From assembly GCA_964505305.1 (NCBI GenBank), contig CAZDHE010000002.1:1-59173 (forward strand): a stretch of 59,173 nt of DNA, in the 5' to 3' direction. Each line of letters opens with the position of its first letter. Positions within the stretch are counted from its first letter, which is position 1. The notes below the pieces were generated by a model. That model worked only from the letters and a program-made list of their open reading frames with translations. It was not told the origin of the DNA and searched no databases. A program made the translations under genes and the position numbers. Of the stretch, positions 37,261 to 47,380 are shown in pieces. This DNA is from an uncultured Bdellovibrionales bacterium (GTDB lineage: Bacteria > Patescibacteriota > Minisyncoccia > Moranbacterales > DUUL01).

Positions 37261-37289
37261 ATTATATTCCACCAAGCTCCCCTTGTCAA
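37261..37289 (-). promoter_or_regulatory. Consensus sigma-70 promoter of the mraZ operon
   Basis: Minus strand TTGACA-17 nt-TATAAT (ttgaca aggggagcttggtggaa tataat). Confidence 0.85.
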
Positions 37290-37346
37290 ACATTTCCAAC
37301 CCTTTTTAGAATATCAAAAAAACGGCTTAAATAAGCCGTTTTAAAA
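37268..37346. repeat. 79-bp direct repeat copy A (terminator + -35 region), partner at 38420-38498
   Basis: 73/79 identical by manual alignment. Confidence 0.9.
37319..37342 (-). terminator. Intrinsic terminator hairpin
   Basis: aaaacggctta-aa-taagccgtttt perfect stem with T/A tails. Confidence 0.65.
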
Positions 37347-37576: not shown

Positions 37577-38251
37577 TTAAAGTTTTTCAACTTTTACTCC
37601 TGTAAACCTGCTTGGATCTTGGATAGATTTAATGAAGCCTGCATCGTATTTATTACTACTTAAATCAATATTACTAGCTTTTAATAATTCTTCTTTCTCC
37701 TCATCCGTCACCCATGTTTCTTCAAGAGGAATATTTTTTCTGGCCTTTGAAAAGAATATTTCCACCACTTCTCCATTATTTGTATTATATTCCACAGATA
37801 TTCCGTACCCATCTTTTTCAAAACGTTTTGTCCAAGTATCCGCCGAGTTCCCCTCAATTGCAGTCTCTGTTGGTTCGGGGTTATCATTAGTTGGCTCTCC
37901 ATACTGTTTAGTAAAATAAGAAATTTTTTTGTTTAATAGACTAGGCACATCAAAAACGATACTCTCTTCATTTTCTTCCCTGACAACCTTTTTATTGTCC
38001 TCCTGAACTTTTTCTACATTAATCTCCTCCTCAAATGAAGAATTAATAGCAAAAAGTAAAACCAATATGATTAAAGTTGATATAATTTTTATTGAATTAT
38101 TCCACTCTGTTTTCGCCCATATATACCAAATTAGAAAAAGGGGTAACAACAATATTACTAAAACCAAACCCCAACCAGAAGCATACCACTCTTTTTGTTT
38201 TTCACTCTTTTGATTTAACTCATTGTTTTTTTTATTGTTTGGTTTTTCCAT
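37577..38251 (-). CDS. Membrane-anchored protein, N-terminal paralog of 41461-42297
   Basis: KEWYASGWGLVLVILLLPLFLIWYIWAKTEWN versus KEWYQTGWGIVIAILFLPYFLVWYMWVKTNWN; C-terminal domains differ. Confidence 0.8.
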   Translation of the reverse strand: MEKPNNKKNNELNQKSEKQKEWYASGWGLVLVILLLPLFLIWYIWAKTEWNNSIKIISTLIILVLLFAINSSFEEEINVEKVQEDNKKVVREENEESIVFDVPSLLNKKISYFTKQYGEPTNDNPEPTETAIEGNSADTWTKRFEKDGYGISVEYNTNNGEVVEIFFSKARKNIPLEETWVTDEEKEELLKASNIDLSSNKYDAGFIKSIQDPSRFTGVKVEKL

Positions 38252-38419
38252 AATGCAAATTAATGATAATTTATTATAATTTTAAAAAAATACTAGACTA
38301 TTCGAAAATAAACATTATTTAACGAAACACCTTTCTGTCACCATTTGCAAAAACATTTAGAAAAAATGTCTATCATAAAAGTTGAATTCGCCATTTTTTT
38401 CTTCCTAATTTTAGGATAC

Positions 38420-38498
38420 TCCACCAAGCTCTCCTTGTCAAACATTTCCAACCCTTTTTAGAATATCTAAAAAACAGCTTAAAAAAGAAGTTTTAAAA
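38420..38498. repeat. 79-bp direct repeat copy B, abutting the tRNA-His 3' fragment
   Basis: tccaccaagctctccttgtcaaacatttccaaccctttttagaatatc...; terminator stem mutated; TTGACA-17-TATCCT retained on the minus strand. Confidence 0.9.
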
Positions 38499-40096
38499 TG
38501 GGCGACTAGAGGGGCTTGAACGATGACTTTCCTGTGAGCAGAGAATAAATCCTTAAAATCATCTCTTGGTTCAACGGCTACAACTTTCTTATTTTTTACC
38601 CAAATTCTTTTTATTGTCATTCTTATCCAGTCCCTTTTCTCTTCCTTAGAAAGTTCTTCTCTCCAGAATTTACCAAATTCTTTTAAAAATTTTTCGGTCT
38701 TTTTAATTCTTTGTTCTTGTTCTCTGGCAGTCATACTGCCTGTAACGCCTTTTCTTTCAAAGGATTCTATCTCTTCTTTTGCTTTTTGCATTTTATAAAG
38801 ATATTCGTTTTCTGGTATATGGCCATTTTCAAACATTACTTTCAATCTTTTTTTTCGAGATAAAATATTATGAATCTCTTCATCTGTTTTTTGATTTTTT
38901 GCGTTTTTCTTAAAAAGCTCTCTAAGACTTTCCAGTGTTAATTTTATAACATCCTCTGGCAATTTCATGCCACTCATAAACTGAAAAATTTGTTTATCAA
39001 TAATTTCGCATTCCACCTTAGGTTGCTTACAACTTTTATTCTCTTTCGCAAATTTGCAGGTATAAAAATAATTTTCTTTTCCCGTTTTATTGTTTCTGTG
39101 ATATTCACAATACATTGAGGGATGCATTCTTCTTAAACTACTCTTCTCGTTTCCTTTTAAATGTTTTATGCAATTATAACAATAAACTAAGCCTTGAAGA
39201 AGATAAAAACGATGTTTGGCAACTGGTCTCCCAAACTTTCCCTTTCTCTCCGCTAAAACATCTTGACATTTATCAAAAAGCTTTTTTGAAATGATTGGCT
39301 TATGAACAGTGCTCTTGATATCTGGCAATGGTTTCCTGGGAGACCAAACTAACCCTAGATAAGATTTATTTGGAATAATACATTTGACTGATGAGAAGGT
39401 GAAAGGATTTCCCATTCTTGTTTTATACCCTTCTTTCGTTAATATTTCAGCTATTTTTTGGATAGAGTAATTGCCGGAAGCATACATCTTAAAAATTCTT
39501 CTCACTATCTCTGCTTCCTTTTTATCTATGTGCCATTCTTTTGAATACAAGGGGCGATTTCTTTCATTATCCCACCCAAGCTTTTTTCTTTTATAACCAA
39601 GTGGCAAATTTCCCCCTATTGGTTTCCCTGAGCTTCTTTTTTGCATTAAAGCGCTTTTCACCCAAAAACCAAGCTGTCTTGAATAATATTCATCAAATAA
39701 TTCATTTATTCCCTCATTAAGGAAAGCGGACGGATCATTGAAATCTCCAAAATTCTGAGTTGTTGAAATCACATCAATTCCCTGTTTTTTTCTCAGTAAA
39801 TTTTTGTATTGCCTGGCCTCCTCGACATTTCTTGCAAATCTGGAAGTGTGAAAAACAATAATAACCTCAAACTTTTTTTGCATCGCATCTTCAATCATTA
39901 CCTGAAAATTGTCTCTTTTTGAGGCTATTTTTCCAGAAATTAGGTCTTTGTATATATGCTGGATTTCTATATTGTTTTTCTTGGCATATTCCCTTATTGC
40001 CCTTTCTTGGGCTTGAGGAGAAAACCCCTTGTCTTGCTATTCCGTGCTTTCTCTTATATAGCCAACGCCAATATTTTTTATCTTTTCATCTTTCAT
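38438..40096 (-). pseudogene. Large serine recombinase interrupted by in-frame TAG at codon 20 (40037-40039)
   Basis: MKDEKIKNIGVGYIRESTE*QDKGFSPQAQERAI... continues in frame into ORF 38438-39898 (VFHTSRFARN, GGNLPLGY recombinase domain, LLQGLVYCYNC zinc ribbon, coiled coil). Confidence 0.88.
38501..38513 (-). pseudogene. 3' fragment of host tRNA-His (T-stem 3' strand + acceptor + C73), left junction
   Basis: Minus strand CCCTC-TAGTCGC-C pairs exactly with GAGGG and GGCGACTA of the 5' fragment at 47197-47258. Confidence 0.88.
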
Positions 40097-40221
40097 TTTG
40101 AGGATTTATTAAATAGACTATCTTAATGAAAAAATTTTTAATTAAGATGTGAAGTGTGAAATTCATCAAAAAATCAATAAACATCGCCCTTTGGGGTGAT
40201 TAATCTTGTTTTATTGCTTTA

Positions 40222-40647
40222 TTATAAACCAAGAATCGATTTTTTCTTGGCCTGGAATTCTTCTTCGCTGATAATTTCTTGATCTCTTAGGTCAGCTAGT
40301 TTTTTAATCTCATCAGCGTAATTATTTGTAGATTGTGGTTTTGTTTCATTCGCAACATCTGCTATTTTTTGATCAATTAATTCCTTGGCTTTATCTGCCT
40401 CTTTTTTATTAACAGCTTTAATAATTAAATTTCCGCTTCCTCCCTTATTAACTATTTCAATATCAGCAGTTAAGAAACCTCTTGTAATATTTATTTGAGC
40501 GATATTTTGGTAAAGTAGGTGCATTTTTACCCTTTTCCCTACAACCAATCCTTCTCCATAAACCCCATCCTCCAAAACTTGTAATTCTTGCTTCCAAGTG
40601 TTTGATAATAGTTTACTTCCTTTTACTGTCATTAAAATCTTTGCCAT
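40222..40647 (-). CDS. PH-like domain + C-terminal SHOCT domain protein
   Basis: C-terminal ADEIKKLADLRDQEIISEEEFQAKKKSIL is a SHOCT-type motif. Confidence 0.8.
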   Translation of the reverse strand: MAKILMTVKGSKLLSNTWKQELQVLEDGVYGEGLVVGKRVKMHLLYQNIAQINITRGFLTADIEIVNKGGSGNLIIKAVNKKEADKAKELIDQKIADVANETKPQSTNNYADEIKKLADLRDQEIISEEEFQAKKKSILGL

Positions 40648-40673
40648 ATTTTTTATTAATTGTTAATTTAAAA

Positions 40674-41441
40674 CTAGTTATTTATAATAAGGTTTCTTTT
40701 TATCTCATTAAAGCATTCACTTGGGCTTCTTGGGGGATTTATCGCCTTTTTTTCTTTTTCTGCAAATTTATTATATATTTCTTCAATTTTTTTCTTCTTC
40801 AAATCCAATTTTTTAATAATTTTTTCTATTCTTTCAATTACTCCTGGAGCTAGAAAAGAAAATTCTTGATCAAAGGGCTTCATAATATCATCTTCTAATT
40901 TTACTACGTTCTCAGAATCGTCCAAGGGCATGTTTTGGGGTCCATTCAAATCTAGGTAACATACAGCCAAATAAAAGCCTAAAGCATACTCCAATTTGTT
41001 CTGCCTTCTAAGCATTTCCCCCATCTGAAATCTTGTGTTTCTATATAGTCCCCATTGATGTTTTTTTGCATAATTCAAAATGTCCTCATTCAACAAGCTC
41101 CATTGAACATCAAAATCTGAAATTTTATTTTTGCTTTCTGATTTATTTAATAATTTCTCTTTTCTTTTTCGATACCTTTCCTTTTCTACTAAGTAAGCCT
41201 CTTGTGTACCATTTTTAATTCGCCATTCTTCATCAATTTTATCTGCTTCGCTTTTTGTCACAGTTAACCTGACACCTCTTGTGTTGGTGCGAACATAAAT
41301 ATAGTTATCACAACTTGAGCATTTTGTTTTAGCGCCAGGTTTCTTCTCTAAACATTTCCCACAGTAAGGACACTCAGCTTTTCGCTGATCTTTGCCCCTT
41401 TTTTTAATATTTATGAAATTAAATATTTTCACAATAATCAA
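40674..41441 (-). CDS. Zinc-ribbon (CPYC...CSSC) helical protein of unknown function
   Basis: ECPYCGKCL...TKCSSCDNYIYVR, WGLYRNTRFQM, VCYLDLNGP. Confidence 0.7.
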   Translation of the reverse strand: MIIVKIFNFINIKKRGKDQRKAECPYCGKCLEKKPGAKTKCSSCDNYIYVRTNTRGVRLTVTKSEADKIDEEWRIKNGTQEAYLVEKERYRKRKEKLLNKSESKNKISDFDVQWSLLNEDILNYAKKHQWGLYRNTRFQMGEMLRRQNKLEYALGFYLAVCYLDLNGPQNMPLDDSENVVKLEDDIMKPFDQEFSFLAPGVIERIEKIIKKLDLKKKKIEEIYNKFAEKEKKAINPPRSPSECFNEIKRNLIINN

Positions 41442-41460
41442 TCTGTTTTAATGATTGAGC

Positions 41461-42297
41461 TTATTTAATCGCAGGATGTTCTTGATAGAAGGCTGCCACT
41501 TTTTCCAGATTTTCTCTCAAGAAATTATCCCAATTTATCTCTTTTATATCTTCACTTTTTAAAGAAACTGTTAAAACATTCTCACTAGACTCATTCCCTT
41601 TCACATCAACCAATGGCAGTTCAGCTACTATAGTTACCCGACGGAAATTGTCCAATATTTGATTATTTAAATTGGAAAACACATTTACCATGTCAGTTTT
41701 AATACCACCTGCTGTCATGCCGGAAGTAAAATTTTCGCTAGCACGAAATTTAATCCACAATTCATTCCTCTCTGTTTTTATTGAAATAACAGTTTTTTTA
41801 TCCATATTGTTCTTTTCTCCGATTTGGTTAACGACAACTGTCTCTGCATCTCGTAAAAGAGTGTCCTTTTTTGTTTCCCACTGATAGTTACTCTTTTTTT
41901 CATCTTCTTTCTTATCTGAGGAATCTTCTTCCGTTTTAGTATCCCCAACTTGTTCCTTTTCTTGATTAGTTGCCACATCATTTTGAGGTGGTTCACTATC
42001 ACTATCTAAAACAGCTATGTTTACGATTACAAATATAATTGTAATCGCAATTTTTAATTTCTTATTCCAATTTGTTTTTACCCACATATACCATACTAAA
42101 AAATATGGCAAAAATAAGATGGCAATAACTATGCCCCACCCTGTTTGATACCATTCTTTTTTTTGGCTTTTTTGTGCCTCGCCACTAGGCATTTGTTGAT
42201 CATTCATTTTTTTAAATAAATTGTTAACTAGAATTTTATCGTCCATAGGTACACAAAAGGCCCCACGAATCGACGACAGTCCTTTCGGAATGCCCAA
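41461..42297 (-). CDS. Membrane-anchored secreted-domain protein (start probably 42247 or 42207)
   Basis: Two TM helices shared with 37577-38251, acidic linker, C-terminal globular domain. Confidence 0.75.
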   Translation of the reverse strand: MGIPKGLSSIRGAFCVPMDDKILVNNLFKKMNDQQMPSGEAQKSQKKEWYQTGWGIVIAILFLPYFLVWYMWVKTNWNKKLKIAITIIFVIVNIAVLDSDSEPPQNDVATNQEKEQVGDTKTEEDSSDKKEDEKKSNYQWETKKDTLLRDAETVVVNQIGEKNNMDKKTVISIKTERNELWIKFRASENFTSGMTAGGIKTDMVNVFSNLNNQILDNFRRVTIVAELPLVDVKGNESSENVLTVSLKSEDIKEINWDNFLRENLEKVAAFYQEHPAIK

Positions 42298-42299
42298 TG

Positions 42300-42400
42300 T
42301 CCTTTCAGATCATTGACCTAGCTAACAAGTGTCGACCGCGAGGCCGTCTCTGTTAGCTAGGATTTGATGCCATGCCCACGCAAAAAGCATGAGTTTAGGC
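42300..42400 (-). ncRNA. Candidate structured 5' leader/ncRNA
   Basis: Perfect cctagctaaca/tgttagctagg stem (about 42317-42361) in a GC-rich intergenic patch with GAAA-loop hairpins nearby. Confidence 0.35.
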
Positions 42401-42653
42401 TTTTTTCTATCTTTATTTTAAACCCTTATGGCTAAAAGATCAAGGTTTTAAAAAATTAACAACCTAAACATTGGAAATATTTTTACCCCCCCCTGAAAAT
42501 TATTAACCATTAGATTATTTAGCCGCTCAATGTGTGTAAAAATTTACACACATAATGGCGTAATACTATATTGATATTTCACAAGAACATTCATAATTTT
42601 TCCATATTTTATTAATATAATTCAATCTTGATAAATTTTTATGCAACAAAGAT

Positions 42654-42685
42654 AAGCAAAAGGCGACTGCGGTTGCCTTTTGCTT
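42654..42685 (-). terminator. Intrinsic terminator after the DUF4352-like gene
   Basis: aagcaaaaggcg ... tgccttttgctt stem. Confidence 0.7.
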
Positions 42686-42701
42686 TAAGATTCAAGATGT
42701 T

Positions 42702-43250
42702 TTAGTACAGCTGAATTTCAACATTGTCGCTACTCCAAAAGTCAGGAGTAAATTGTAATTTAAATTTCTCTGAATCTTCAGGCGTTTCAAATGTAACCCA
42801 CCCTCTAACTTTTCCACCAGGATTAAGTGTTCCAGAACTCAGTTCAGGTTCTTTATCTTCCGTCATGCCTTGGTCGAAACTATAACCTTCGCTGTCATAA
42901 AGTTTCCAATCGAAAGGATTGTAGCTTAGTGATTTATCAGAGGTATTGTTCTCGTATTTAACTTCTATAGCCACAAGCTTATTCCCCGCTTCCGGTTGCA
43001 TAAACTCGTTTTTCGCTTTGAACGGGTCTTCCATGTCCGTTACTGTCACTGCATAGTCGCCAAGTTTTATATCCTCGCCCAATTTGAACGTTTTTTGGGC
43101 TTCTTTTTTTTCTTCTTGGGAGGATTTTTTGGATGAAGAGTCATCAACCTTTTCTGGTTGTGTTCCTTGAGGCACACCCGAAGAACCTGTGCATCCTGCC
43201 AGGAAAACAAGTGCAATAAAAAATGCAGACAAAGTTAATGCCTTTTTCAT
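42702..43250 (-). CDS. DUF4352-like lipoprotein
   Basis: Lipobox FLAGC; FKLGE, VAIEVKYENN, FDWKLYDSEGYSF, GTLNPGGKVRGWVTFETP. Confidence 0.85.
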   Translation of the reverse strand: MKKALTLSAFFIALVFLAGCTGSSGVPQGTQPEKVDDSSSKKSSQEEKKEAQKTFKLGEDIKLGDYAVTVTDMEDPFKAKNEFMQPEAGNKLVAIEVKYENNTSDKSLSYNPFDWKLYDSEGYSFDQGMTEDKEPELSSGTLNPGGKVRGWVTFETPEDSEKFKLQFTPDFWSSDNVEIQLY

Positions 43251-43296
43251 ATTATCACCCCCTTTCCACGAAAATTTATTTGCATTAGATGATTAA

Positions 43297-43464
43297 TTAA
43301 TTTAATCTTTCACGTAAATTTTGAGACTCTTGTTGCAACCTCTCACCTCTTTTCTCCATTTTATCTAATTTTTTATCATTTTGCCATATTCTAAACACTC
43401 CAAACAAAAATATCGCAAGCACAACAGAAACAATAACAAGAGCTAACCTGCTAGGTTTTTTCAT
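43297..43464 (-). CDS. 55-aa single-TM + coiled-coil peptide (not in ORF track)
   Basis: Manual translation MKKPSRLALVIVSVVLAIFLFGVFRIWQNDKKLDKMEKRGERLQQESQNLRERLN. Confidence 0.7.
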   Translation of the reverse strand: MKKPSRLALVIVSVVLAIFLFGVFRIWQNDKKLDKMEKRGERLQQESQNLRERLN

Positions 43465-43539
43465 TATTTTTTATTAAAGTTTAAGGTAACCAACTAATTT
43501 CTTTTTTTGACTGAGGAAACAAAAAAGGACAGCCGAGCC

Positions 43540-43652
43540 GTTCACCCACAACAAACTTCGCGAGGAAGTCCAATTATGGAACTCGACTGCCCATTACTAT
43601 CCACAATCGGATAAATAGGCAGTGCCTCGCGAAATCTGAGTTGTAGGTGAAC
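43540..43652 (-). ncRNA. Long multi-stem hairpin starting at a predicted transcription start
   Basis: GTTCACCTACAAC/GTTGTGGGTGAAC, TTCGCGAGG/CCTCGCGAA, ACTGCC/GGCAGT and TATCC/GGATA stems; TATAAT 6 nt upstream (43659-43664). Confidence 0.5.
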
Positions 43653-43843
43653 ATTTAAATTATAACAAAATATATAAAAAAAGCAAAAACAAGAAATTTA
43701 TAAAATGAAAAGGCTTCGTTCTTAATAAACACAAAGTTAGATAAAAAACTGTGATCTTCTTTTTGTCCAACTTATTAGACACATTTTCACGTAATACTTA
43801 AAAAACAAGAGGCATATCAAAATATGTCTTTTTAATAGTGTAA

Positions 43844-44998
43844 TTATAATAACTTTGTTTGCCCAAAAGGCTTCAAAGCAAATTCGGATAAAAAATAATT
43901 ATGTATTTTACTAGCCGTTAAGTTGTTTAATGATGCAAAGTTTATCTGTTTTGCTATTTTATTAATTTCATTTATATGGTTGTAATATGTTTGTCGGCTC
44001 TTGTAGTTATTAAATGAATATTCCTTAAATCCTTTCACCCCGCCTTTTGACTGAATTTTTTCAATAGCATATTTCGCAAGCATCCTTTTATCAATGCGTT
44101 TTATATTTTTATCTAATATTGCTTCTACTAATGGAGAGTTTGAGCTACTTAAAAAAATGAAGTCTTGTAGAGGGTGAACGAAAATTCTTTTAACTTCTTT
44201 TTTTAATAATTCTTTCCAGATTTCATTCTTGAAGATATTTTCAATAGTTACTTCATTGCAATTATAGAGCTTAAGTCTACTCTTAATCGTGCTTTTTCTC
44301 TTCAATGTCAACTCTACTCTTATTAATTCGCATAATAACACCTTATTTTTCTTGTATCTCTCGTTGCTCAAAGATTTAATGACATTCTTTTCCTTTGGAG
44401 TAATTGCATTTGATTTTAACTCCTGTAACTTTGAATAAACCTTAAAAGTCGAAGATTTTGTACTGTAGTATAGCTCAGCTCCTCCGTCTCGGGGCTTTAT
44501 AATATAGCAACTGGATCTAAAACGATCATCAAATTTTGACAATGTATCTATAACTTGTTCACAGCTACAAATTTCTGTGAAGTCTATATTTTTACTAAAA
44601 GCCACCAAGGAAGGTTCGGCATCAAGAATTTCTTTCGAAAAAATCTTTCTTGTACCAATGTCATTTTCTAAGAAAGATTGCATCTTTTCAACAAACGGCA
44701 ACAAGTCACTATCTCGTGGAATTGCAATATTATGACCATATAGAAATTTTGGAACTGAAACTTCTATAAACAATTTTTTGTTTTGAGGATTTAAAAAGTC
44801 TTCTTGAAACCATATTTTTGGTGTATATATTCCTCTCTTTTTCCTCTCTTTTCTCCAGTTATTTGCTGTATAGACATATCTAGAGCTTCCTTTGTCAACA
44901 GGGCTATTTATTAATTCTTTATACTTAATTTTTTCTGAAAAAAATTCCTGGGCTTTTCTATCAAACTTTATATTTAATGCAAATTTCACAGTATCCAT
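43844..44998 (-). CDS. Putative rolling-circle replication initiator (Rep_trans / phage gpII-X-like)
   Basis: MDTVK start, IEVSVPKFLYGHN, ELYYSTKSSTFKVYSKLQE and IRVELTLK resemble motifs of this superfamily; recognition only. Confidence 0.55.
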   Translation of the reverse strand: MDTVKFALNIKFDRKAQEFFSEKIKYKELINSPVDKGSSRYVYTANNWRKERKKRGIYTPKIWFQEDFLNPQNKKLFIEVSVPKFLYGHNIAIPRDSDLLPFVEKMQSFLENDIGTRKIFSKEILDAEPSLVAFSKNIDFTEICSCEQVIDTLSKFDDRFRSSCYIIKPRDGGAELYYSTKSSTFKVYSKLQELKSNAITPKEKNVIKSLSNERYKKNKVLLCELIRVELTLKRKSTIKSRLKLYNCNEVTIENIFKNEIWKELLKKEVKRIFVHPLQDFIFLSSSNSPLVEAILDKNIKRIDKRMLAKYAIEKIQSKGGVKGFKEYSFNNYKSRQTYYNHINEINKIAKQINFASLNNLTASKIHNYFLSEFALKPFGQTKLL

Positions 44999-45019
44999 AG
45001 AGGAGTTTTGAAGAAGAAG

Positions 45020-45220
45020 CTAAGTCATTGCCCTAGGTTCTCGGGAAAACTCCTCAGAAAACCCTTTCCTAGGGCAATGGCTTTGCTCTTCCTTGGTTAA
45101 TGGATTATTTTCAAAGTGTCTGTTATTCCAAAATTCAAAGAAAAATCCGGCTAATTGTTCTGCAACCGCTTTATTTTGTTTATCAGTGATTTTTGGATTC
45201 TTATTATTAGTCATTTTCAA
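45020..45220 (-). CDS. Small hypothetical protein upstream of Rep
   Basis: 66-aa ORF in operon-like position; function unknown. Confidence 0.55.
   Translation of the reverse strand: MKMTNNKNPKITDKQNKAVAEQLAGFFFEFWNNRHFENNPLTKEEQSHCPRKGFSEEFSREPRAMT
45026..45079. repeat. Perfect 12-bp inverted repeat upstream of rep
   Basis: cattgccctagg (45026-45037) / cctagggcaatg (45068-45079). Confidence 0.8.
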
Positions 45221-45228
45221 TTAAAAAA

Positions 45229-45249
45229 ACTGCAAATTATATTTGCAGT
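45229..45249. promoter_or_regulatory. Palindromic operator candidate
   Basis: actgcaaat-tat-atttgcagt directly upstream of the small ORF/rep unit. Confidence 0.5.
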
Positions 45250-45292
45250 CTAAGATAATTAAAAATAACGTGATATTACCAATAAAGAATCC

Positions 45293-46054
45293 TTATATGT
45301 CAGTGATTCGTTTTTTAATTCTGTTCAGGATTATACCGATATCATCGTATAATAATGCTTTCCCTTTAAATTCTTCATTTATCTTTTTTGCTATCTCAGA
45401 ATAAGACAGTCCCTTTTCTCGTAAATCATAAATTCTTAAATCCCTATTGAAGTTTGTTTTAGGTTTATTTCTTCCTTCTTTGTAATTCATCGTCCTTTTC
45501 TTATATCGTTTTATTAAAGGCCATACATTCTCTATATCCTTTATCGTTGTGTTACTAAAAACCTCTAAAAAGAGTCTGTAAGTTTTTTTATCTTCTTTAT
45601 CTCTTTCAAACCAAAATCCAACATTATCTCTTGGAATGTAAACTAATGTGTTGTTTGTAAGATATAGCATTACTGTTTTGTGGTAGTGCTGAGAAATGCT
45701 ATATTTTTTCATTATTTCATCAATTTCACTATAAAACTTATTTAAGGGTGTTTTCTGATCTAATTTTGTAAGTTTGCTTTTACAGCTATCATAGGTCTTG
45801 TAATCCTTGCTCTTTTTTGCTTGTTCAATCTTTTTAAGCAGAGTTCTTCTATTGTCATTATAATCTTTACTTGCTATAAACTTATCAGTTTCCCTTCCGA
45901 GCCAATGCCACCATCCCTCTACTTCTTCATCCTTCAAGCCCTCATCTCCAATAAGCCATTTTTTACGAAAAGAGAGCGCTTCGTCTTGGAAGGATTTTTT
46001 TCTTATCAACAATTCAAATTTTTGCCTATTAAAACTCGAGGAATTATTTTTCAT
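45293..46054 (-). CDS. Protein with C-terminal helix-turn-helix (element regulator candidate)
   Basis: RDLRIYDLREKGLSYSEIAKKINEEF...IGIILNRIKKRI. Confidence 0.65.
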   Translation of the reverse strand: MKNNSSSFNRQKFELLIRKKSFQDEALSFRKKWLIGDEGLKDEEVEGWWHWLGRETDKFIASKDYNDNRRTLLKKIEQAKKSKDYKTYDSCKSKLTKLDQKTPLNKFYSEIDEIMKKYSISQHYHKTVMLYLTNNTLVYIPRDNVGFWFERDKEDKKTYRLFLEVFSNTTIKDIENVWPLIKRYKKRTMNYKEGRNKPKTNFNRDLRIYDLREKGLSYSEIAKKINEEFKGKALLYDDIGIILNRIKKRITDI

Positions 46055-46117
46055 TTTTTTAAATATTTACTAAAAAAGAACTGCAAAAACAGTTCTTTAA
46101 GCTGAAATCTGCAGAGG

Positions 46118-46189
46118 GGCGAGTAAAGGGAATTGAACCCTTATGTCCGGTGCCACAAACCGGTGTTCTACCATTGAACTATACTCGCC
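46118..46189 (-). tRNA. tRNA-His(GTG), intact, element-borne
   Basis: G-1:C73, GCGAGTA/TACTCGC acceptor, CCGGT-TTGTGGC-ACCGG anticodon arm, AAGGG-TTCAATT-CCCTT T-arm. Confidence 0.95.
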
Positions 46190-46256
46190 CCACTATAGAC
46201 TTCCACGAGATAATTAACGAAAATTAAAGATAAATTATATCATATAAACAATTATA

Positions 46257-47066
46257 TTACAATAGTTTGTTGTAATCATACTGAACATCTTTTGGTGCAA
46301 ATATAATGCCAAAGCCATTTACCCTCCCTCCCTTATTGTCTCTAATGTTATCTTTAATAACGTCATAATATTTCTTATTATCTTTTTTAAAATATTCTCT
46401 TACTGCTCCAGTTGTGAAATCCGCTACTTGCAAGAGTTCGCAATATTTAGCATGAGTGTAAAATAAAGTCTCACGCAAACAATGTCTTAACTCAATTTTT
46501 TTCCAATCCTTTCCTTCAATGTATATATCTTCAAAATCATCACTATACATATGACCTTTTTTCCATAAATCGTTATAAGTTTTTGCAAGATTCACCTTTT
46601 TTTTAGGTCCAAGATAATCTATTATCATTTGTCCATGAGGATAATATCCTTGTTTTGTTGCATTAAAACCAACTTTCCCTGACAAGAAAAAAACAAATCT
46701 TTCAGCTAACCTAGAAAGTGCGAAACACTGAGAATTCCAATAATTATCATCGTTTCTTATTACTGAACAAATTATTGTTGTTTCATATTCCTTCAATAGA
46801 TTAAGAACTTCTTCTCGCAATTTGTTTCTTTTAGCAGGAGGGAGGGCATATTGTTCAGGACATTCTCTTTTTGTTGGAGACCATTTTATATAAGCATCTT
46901 CATTTCCTAATATATCCTGTTTTATTTTTTTTAATTCAAGTTGAAAATTTGCCTCCCTCATTCCATTTTTTATAATAAATCCGCCTAGATAACAAGGATT
47001 CTCATTGGTTCCAGAATCATCTAGATAAAAAACAAATCTTTCAGGCACTTTATTTTCAGTCAACAT
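46257..47066 (-). CDS. DUF3800-like (RNase H-like fold) protein
   Basis: FYLDDSG N-terminal motif and LLQVADF C-terminal motif. Confidence 0.75.
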   Translation of the reverse strand: MLTENKVPERFVFYLDDSGTNENPCYLGGFIIKNGMREANFQLELKKIKQDILGNEDAYIKWSPTKRECPEQYALPPAKRNKLREEVLNLLKEYETTIICSVIRNDDNYWNSQCFALSRLAERFVFFLSGKVGFNATKQGYYPHGQMIIDYLGPKKKVNLAKTYNDLWKKGHMYSDDFEDIYIEGKDWKKIELRHCLRETLFYTHAKYCELLQVADFTTGAVREYFKKDNKKYYDVIKDNIRDNKGGRVNGFGIIFAPKDVQYDYNKLL

Positions 47067-47196
47067 TATAAAATTACAATTTAGTATGTAAAATCATTTC
47101 AACGCAGAATTATGAGATTGATGCACCTTATAATGATCACATCCCAATAATTTTATTCTTTTCCATATCTTGTAGCTAGGAAAGTCATTGTCTTGG

Positions 47197-47258
47197 GGGA
47201 ATTGAACCCTCATATCCGGTGCCACAAACCGGTGTTCTACCATTGAACTATAGTCGCC
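47197..47258 (-). pseudogene. 5' fragment of host tRNA-His(GTG), right junction
   Basis: GGCGACTATAGTTCAATGGTAGAACACCGGTTTGTGGCACCGGATATGAGGGTTCAATTCCC then diverges (CCAAGAC); no acceptor 3' strand locally. Confidence 0.9.
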
Positions 47259-47364
47259 ATATGTTTTTAATGTATCTCAAATCAATGCTTTTTCCTATAG
47301 TCAGCCCGGCATTCGCCGGGTTCTCAATTTTATTGCTAAATCAAAGATTTAGATAAAATTGGAA

Positions 47365-47380
47365 AACTATAGTCGCCATA
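47365..47380. repeat. 16-bp direct repeat of the tRNA-His 5' end
   Basis: aactatagtcgccata, identical to 47246-47261. Confidence 0.8.

Follow-up and report, generated by a model that had tools for sequence, protein, structure and literature searches.

A predicted attP site symmetric about its crossover dinucleotide in a serine-integrase element inserted into a Patescibacteria tRNA-His gene

Introduction

Which enzyme placed a mobile element inside a tRNA-His gene of a Patescibacteria genome, and at which nucleotides were the strands exchanged? The question is raised by a stretch of 59,173 nucleotides from an uncultured bacterium (contig CAZDHE010000002.1, assembly GCA_964505305.1), which is called the window throughout. 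It is contig 2 of an assembly of ~1 Mb with 57 contigs and 88% completeness. The integrative element in question occupies positions 38514-47199 of the window (8,686 bp), ends inside the host's only tRNA-His(GTG) gene and carries at its left end a gene, int, for a large serine recombinase (38438..40096, minus strand, 552 codons). Serine integrases commonly use sites in coding regions, whereas tRNA genes are commonly used by tyrosine integrases (PMC6109161). A preliminary description of the window, made from the letters alone, had proposed that joining the two element ends restores a symmetric serine-integrase attP centred on the crossover. On the sequence evidence laid out below, we consider it highly probable that the element's own large serine recombinase inserted it into tRNA-His at C61C62 and that attP is symmetric about this crossover.

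Reconstruction of attP and attB

The right end of the element reads aggaaagtcattgtcttggggg (47178-47199) and the left end gcttgaacgatgactttcct (38514-38533). Joined, the two ends give a site of 42 bp, aggaaagtcat-tgtcttggggggcttgaacg-atgactttcct, in which perfect 11-bp inverted arms (47178-47188 and 38523-38533) enclose a spacer of 20 bp. The centre lies between positions 21 and 22 of the 42-mer, that is, on the GG at 47198-47199, which makes up two of the three G residues (47197-47199) that also match the tRNA. The 42-bp site as first described, with its arms, its spacer and a centre on a GG within the shared ggg, is thus confirmed from the sequence of both ends. Overall, 14 of 20 positions are symmetric, the outer 11 bp perfectly so. 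When window positions were joined at random 200,000 times, only 14 joins (7e-5) gave a comparable inverted repeat, pairing without mismatch over 11 bp or more and with its centre no further than 1 nt from the junction.

There are four G residues at the left junction, five at the right junction and three in the intact tRNA; attP therefore contained six, in agreement with the six-G middle that had been written at the outset. As judged by ARAGORN, flanks joined through three G residues fold into a canonical tRNA-His(GTG), in which the 5-bp T-stem is perfect and the T-loop has 7 nt, and joining through two or four G residues gives a defective T-arm. Uninterrupted tRNA-His genes of relatives from the same genus or family (G001, G002, G011 and G012) are 93-96% identical to the joined flanks.

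Accordingly, each half-site can be placed on the window. The 5′ part of the host tRNA-His, from G-1 to T-loop position 60 (47200..47258, minus strand; nhmmer, model positions 1-63), represents the B arm of attB, and the 3′ fragment with the T-stem 3′ strand C61-C65, the acceptor 3′ strand and C73 (38499..38513, minus strand) represents the B′ arm. The int-proximal half-site of attP, the P arm, extends over 38514..38533 with its 11-bp repeat arm at 38523-38533, and the distal half-site, the P′ arm, over 47178..47197 with its repeat arm at 47178-47188. Copies of the predicted crossover dinucleotide are found in attL at 38512-38513, within the tRNA-His 3′ fragment, and in attR at 47198..47199, where GG on the plus strand corresponds to tRNA C62C61. 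Taken by itself, the 3-nt identity in the window permits just two 2-bp crossover positions, one of which is the dyad centre.

Crossover position in homologous elements

Homologous loci were taken from genome and metagenome contigs, and 40 int-proximal junctions were examined. An arm of the form ..AAAGTCwTnGnTCAAGC is found at the int 3′ end in these 40 loci, and every one of the junctions corresponds to the same tRNA position: the P arm is followed by CC and the tRNA 3′ end in 36 of them, and by GG and the antisense T-loop in four. Twelve homologous elements (13 with that of the window) have both junctions on one contig, eight of them from Patescibacteria at tRNA-His, including one inverted element, and four from Solirubrobacterales at tRNA-Asp. 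Junctions were curated by tRNA homology and T-stem pairing; automated splice testing with ARAGORN was dropped as too permissive. Both junctions were located through tRNA homology, independently of any symmetry, in the window, L013, L019, L026, L027 and L041, and the distal junction was found by a mirror-arm search in the remaining seven (L112, L124, L031, L038, L046, L049 and L086).

The preliminary description had pointed to homologous elements with a different crossover position as the finding that would speak against it. This comparison was run, and all 12 elements peak solely at C61C62. Their attP symmetry amounts to 13-18 of 20 positions when the site is centred on tRNA C61C62, and to at most 11 at any other offset. 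For the six elements located by homology the difference is wider still, with 13-17 of 20 symmetric positions at C61C62 and at most eight elsewhere. The seven elements from the mirror-arm search agree on the same centre. The outer arms differ between elements (CAT/ATG, CTT/AAG and TAC/GTA types), and P and P′ co-vary within each element. Taken together, the domains of the integrase and the 12 homologues support the proposed pair of a serine-integrase attB and a symmetric attP centred on the presumed crossover.

The extent of the identity shared by junction and tRNA delimits the crossover further. It is CCC in the window, L019, L041 and L112, and TCC in L013, and it shrinks to CC and nothing more in L027 and L124 and to GG alone in L031. 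These 2-nt overlaps fix the crossover and thereby settle the one-base ambiguity of the window in favour of the symmetric position. Longer overlaps, of 8 nt in L026 and 14 nt in the tRNA-Asp elements, are due to chance or mimicry.

In serine integrases, the polarity of integration is set by a non-palindromic central dinucleotide. Four loci (L015, L018, L031 and L110) have the int-side arm of the others combined with a central GG in place of CC. These four are inserted the opposite way to the CC class, whose 36 loci are in the sense orientation; for L031, both junctions are seen. Such a coupled switch of dinucleotide and orientation is the behaviour that would be expected of the central dinucleotide of a serine integrase.

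Within the half-sites, two blocks are conserved, GGTCAAG on the inner side and GGAAAGTC on the outer side. This arrangement would fit binding by the recombinase domain and the zinc-ribbon domain. The inner motif TCAA occupies positions -6 to -3 in most P, P′ and B half-sites; its presence in most B arms is explained by the T-loop sequence TTCAAnn. Some elements lack it, for instance L013, which has CCGA in B. In the window, ttgaac occurs at 38516-38521 and at 47203-47208, in both cases beginning at +3 from the central GG. The earlier suggestion that ttgaac in attP mimics the T-loop of attB was therefore correct as to its presence in register in both sites, but the motif is better read as the inner half-site motif.

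The integrase and its reading frame

The protein encoded by int, read through the stop codon described below, matches the resolvase domain PF00239 (85.7 bits, residues 11-158) and the recombinase domain PF07508 (68.9 bits, cut-off 21.1). Together with a weak match to a zinc ribbon, these domains identify it as a large serine recombinase. In an alignment of 26 sequences, Y13-I14-R15-E16-S17 is invariant, as are C306, C347 and C356, and C309 and C330 are nearly so. The nearest solved structures (3g13, 3guv and 3bvp of TP901-1) align to the catalytic domain only. Integrase homologues fall into 116 clusters with 27-77% identity, and the named ones, including the closest, are mostly from Patescibacteria. 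In the closest relatives from its own family and order, the integrases are all distant (26-27% identity) and were of no help for the att sites.

An in-frame TAG at 40037-40039 forms codon 20 of int, three codons past the catalytic serine (YIRESTE-stop-Q), a position occupied by E, D or S in 25 homologues. TAG ends 89 of 464 long open frames in this genome (19%) and is thus an ordinary stop; among the tRNAs of the assembly, none with a CUA anticodon was detected. The integrase copy is therefore truncated as assembled.

At its other end, the int open reading frame reads through attL into the tRNA fragment, and the P arm on the minus strand encodes the integrase residues R-K-V-I-V-Q-A. Nearly all homologues end in KV[IL]xQxPxx[AT]P, the final residues being translated tRNA acceptor stem, from which it follows that the homologous genes were called on integrated elements. 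In the reconstructed excised form, int continues in frame across attP into the distal end of the element (47094..47197 joined to 38514-38533, minus strand) and would end in ..QAP-QDNDFPSYKIWKRIKLLGCDHYKVHQSHNSALK and a stop codon. In each of the nine tRNA-His elements (window, L013, L019, L026, L027, L031, L041, L112 and L124), the frame of this excised form runs for 19-40 codons before a stop. Seven of the nine tails share the motif [IL]W[KNRA][KRSA][IV][KRQ][LI][LMIV], often followed by xC[DE]; the exceptions are L026 and L112. The att arms are well removed from this motif, and its leucines are encoded by TTA, TTG and CTA. Codon variability in the tail is lowest at position 2 (0.28, compared with 0.49 at position 1 and 0.56 at position 3). 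In the integrated state, the tail past ..QAP is tRNA-derived and then arbitrary. The open frame, the shared motif and the coding-like variation point to a real, state-dependent C-terminus. This exchangeable tail may have a functional role. The excised-form tail was absent from all 116 protein homologues.

Compensation for the broken tRNA

The element carries a complete tRNA-His(GTG) of its own (46116..46188, minus strand), which is the only intact tRNA-His in the assembly at its 88% completeness. Likewise, every tRNA-His element with both junctions brings its own tRNA-His. The copy in the window shows five compensatory differences, whereas the carried tRNA-His of L019, L041 and L124 shows no difference from the host attB anywhere in the tRNA-derived part. 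Recoding against self-targeting is therefore no general feature.

A different situation is met in the Solirubrobacterales relatives (L032-L088), whose integrases are ~33% identical and read antisense into tRNA-Asp(GTC). At the distal junction of L038, L046, L049 and L086, the last 14 nt of tRNA-Asp are repeated and followed by the mirror arm, as in L046 (2330-2375 and 11430-11480). The attP of this group is symmetric at 14-15 of 20 positions about GG, equivalent to C62C61. As the P arm copies the tRNA-Asp 3′ end, the tRNA-Asp is rebuilt rather than replaced. The same recombinase clade thus appears to have two answers to tRNA damage, a carried tRNA-His and a tRNA-Asp rebuilt by the P arm.

Discussion

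From the anatomy of the sites, the domain content of the enzyme and the agreement among 12 elements, all of which can be read off the DNA directly, we infer the following catalytic mechanism. The attP of the excised circle would span ~42-50 bp and consist of near-identical inverted half-sites (consensus GGAAAGTCwTnGGTCAAGC) around a non-palindromic CC, with one integrase subunit bound per half-site. In attP and attB alike, cuts staggered by 2 nt would be introduced at the central dinucleotide, followed by rotation and religation. Strand exchange would thereby fall on the two nucleotides with which the T-stem 3′ strand begins (C61C62; GG on the plus strand of the window), and the orientation of the insertion would be set by the central dinucleotide. 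The products would share this dinucleotide alone, apart from a single adjacent C whose match is fortuitous. Owing to such very short shared identity, the tRNA is split and not restored, and the element brings its own tRNA-His.

Several observations weigh against insertion by the element's own integrase at a symmetric attP. The premature TAG would render the window copy of the enzyme inactive as written, and the nonsense codon has probably locked this element in place. The zinc-ribbon domain PF13408 scores 20.3 bits in the window, under the cut-off of 25.3, and reaches 25.8 bits in the homologue P0023. For seven of the 13 elements, the symmetry is partly a product of the mirror-arm search; that their arms adjoin the tRNA fragment constitutes independent evidence, and in L112, L124 and L031 each mirror arm lies directly at the expected fragment. 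Neither an excised circle nor a native attP nor an empty site was seen from the window's population, and all 40 int-proximal junctions, like almost every one of the 116 protein homologues, represent the integrated state. Finally, no recombination directionality factor was identified. In the two close homologues L091 (1547-1732) and L092 (9727-9909), a 60-aa gene of the HTH_17/MerR type lies divergently upstream of int and represents a candidate factor for excision or directionality; no HTH_17 equivalent was seen in the window.

Viral contigs were also searched for a native excised attP. A degenerate 36-nt palindrome pattern gave one match (L102), which is located between phage genes with no recombinase nearby and is unrelated, and a protein-guided scan of these contigs retrieved no relatives.

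The explanation that stays closest to the proposed mechanism places the crossover one base off-centre, at G3G4 of the six-G run instead of G4G5, so that an asymmetric attP is cut. The window alone allows this, as its 3-nt overlap accommodates two 2-bp positions. However, the overlap in L027, L124 and L031 is exactly the equivalent of G4G5, and the dyad centre coincides with this dinucleotide in 13 of 13 elements, which makes an off-centre cut improbable. A further possibility is that the symmetry reflects coding or some other constraint instead of integrase binding, given that the arm encodes the KVIxQAP tail of the integrase. Since the P arm lies in conserved codons, its conservation alone indeed cannot be credited to DNA recognition. 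The P′ arm, on the other hand, mirrors P at a distant locus and co-varies with it within each element. Coding in one arm is unable to explain this, and we regard a constraint of this type as very unlikely.

Equally little speaks for a transposon with subterminal inverted repeats and a short target duplication, in which the integrase gene would be incidental. Repeats near both ends and the 2-3-nt repeat at the element flanks would suit such an element, yet domain and phrog searches found no transposase among the element open reading frames, and 40 loci share an identical tRNA position with the recombinase gene always reading through one arm. Moreover, the orientation tracks the central dinucleotide, and the repeats begin 9 nt inside the ends, as in the half-sites of serine integrases. 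Action in trans by a tyrosine-type or other recombinase, with the interrupted similarity GGGaaTTGAAC/GGGgcTTGAAC as its core, strikes us as hardly credible. It would draw on the match of 9 of 11 attB and attP positions in register and on the classic role of tRNA genes as tyrosine-integrase targets (PMC6109161). This similarity, however, is broken right by the junction and is not conserved, L013 having TCCGATT in the B arm and CTCAACT in P. The 2-nt overlaps in three elements exclude an overlap region of 6-8 bp, the tRNA is left unrestored, and a domain search found no tyrosine recombinase or phage-integrase domain among the element open reading frames.

Insertion by the serine integrase itself can be set beside known systems. 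With the integrases of phiC31, Bxb1, A118 and TP901-1 and with SPbeta SprA, the enzyme shares the resolvase catalytic domain followed by a recombinase domain and, given the weak match in the window, probably also the zinc ribbon of the three-domain arrangement. As in serine integrases generally, attP measures ~40-50 bp, its inverted half-sites are imperfect and surround a non-palindromic central dinucleotide setting polarity, attB and attP share essentially only this dinucleotide, and the target gene is split and not restored. Unlike usual serine integrases, the present ones target the T-stem of a tRNA gene at C61C62, and their attP is contained in the 3′-terminal part of int. The elements themselves are also unusual in being 5-11 kb long, with a Rep-like gene, a replacement tRNA and no recognisable virion genes. 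Thus, the site is an ordinary large-serine-recombinase att site, and the clade is an unusual variant with its T-stem target, its attP in int and its tRNA compensation. Full-text literature searches brought up no account of a serine integrase from Patescibacteria or of one that acts at tRNA-His.

The tRNA gene target and the conserved single-copy landing site are reminiscent of tyrosine-integrase tRNA islands and prophages. In those systems, attP copies the tRNA 3′ end, the gene is restored and the overlap is at least 7 bp; the present insertions share 2 nt with their target and leave the gene disrupted. The location of attP within an element gene, such that integration alters the product, recalls SSV1-type integrases and mycobacteriophages with integration-dependent immunity. 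The int gene of SSV1 is split mid-gene, and both SSV1 and these mycobacteriophages use tyrosine recombinases. In the latter, it is the repressor that is truncated (Broussard 2013, cited in PMC6109161). The present case differs from both in that the enzyme is a serine integrase and only its last 20-40 codons are exchanged.

Genetic tools are almost lacking for the Patescibacteria. The analysis provides a well-supported attB/attP pair and a half-site consensus for a Patescibacteria integrase family, with the crossover located to the nucleotide by natural variation instead of experiment. As the tRNA target is conserved, these integrases could be put to use for integration in many members of the phylum. 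The CC/GG switch and the position of attP in the int frame raise the question of whether directionality is partly encoded in the exchangeable integrase tail. A broader idea, which we put forward tentatively and which may well prove wrong, is that the elements belong to an undescribed clade of Patescibacteria and Solirubrobacterales specialised on tRNA T-stem C61C62, with attP within int. Its integrase would end in a conserved tail of 20-40 residues ([IL]W[KR][KR][IV]KLL.C[DE]) when made from the excised form and in a tRNA-derived junk tail when made from the integrated one. This tail swap might sense the integration state and bias directionality or stability, and tRNA damage might be compensated in two ways, by carriage of tRNA-His or rebuilding of tRNA-Asp.

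Other features of the locus

Besides int and the tRNA-His, the element carries on its minus strand a candidate replication protein gene (43844..44998; phrog_702 'replication protein', E = 2e-7, without Pfam match) and genes for a SHOCT-domain protein, a DUF4352 lipoprotein and a DUF3800 protein. The cargo of related elements is variable. L092 has a type I restriction-modification system and a transposase upstream of int, and L091 has a lactamase_B gene beyond its HTH_17 gene.

Beside the int end of the element, an 83-nt direct repeat, D1 (37264-37346 and 38416-38498, copies 92% identical), brackets the gene for a 224-aa membrane protein (37577-38251), the N-terminus of which resembles that encoded by the element open reading frame 41461-42297. 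The bracketed gene may be a relic of an older insertion beside the same tRNA. D1 was also considered as an att-like sequence and set aside, as it probably represents a TTGACA promoter box.

On the other side, comparison of 47245-47379 with G001 from the same genus revealed in the window an insertion of ~117 bp directly upstream of the tRNA-His 5′ end. It has a 15-nt direct repeat, aactatagtcgccat, at its flanks and a GC hairpin, cccggcattcgccggg, within. A similar hairpin-bearing insert is present in G001 itself (L095, about 1412-1500), in the T-loop of a second, fragmentary tRNA-His copy.

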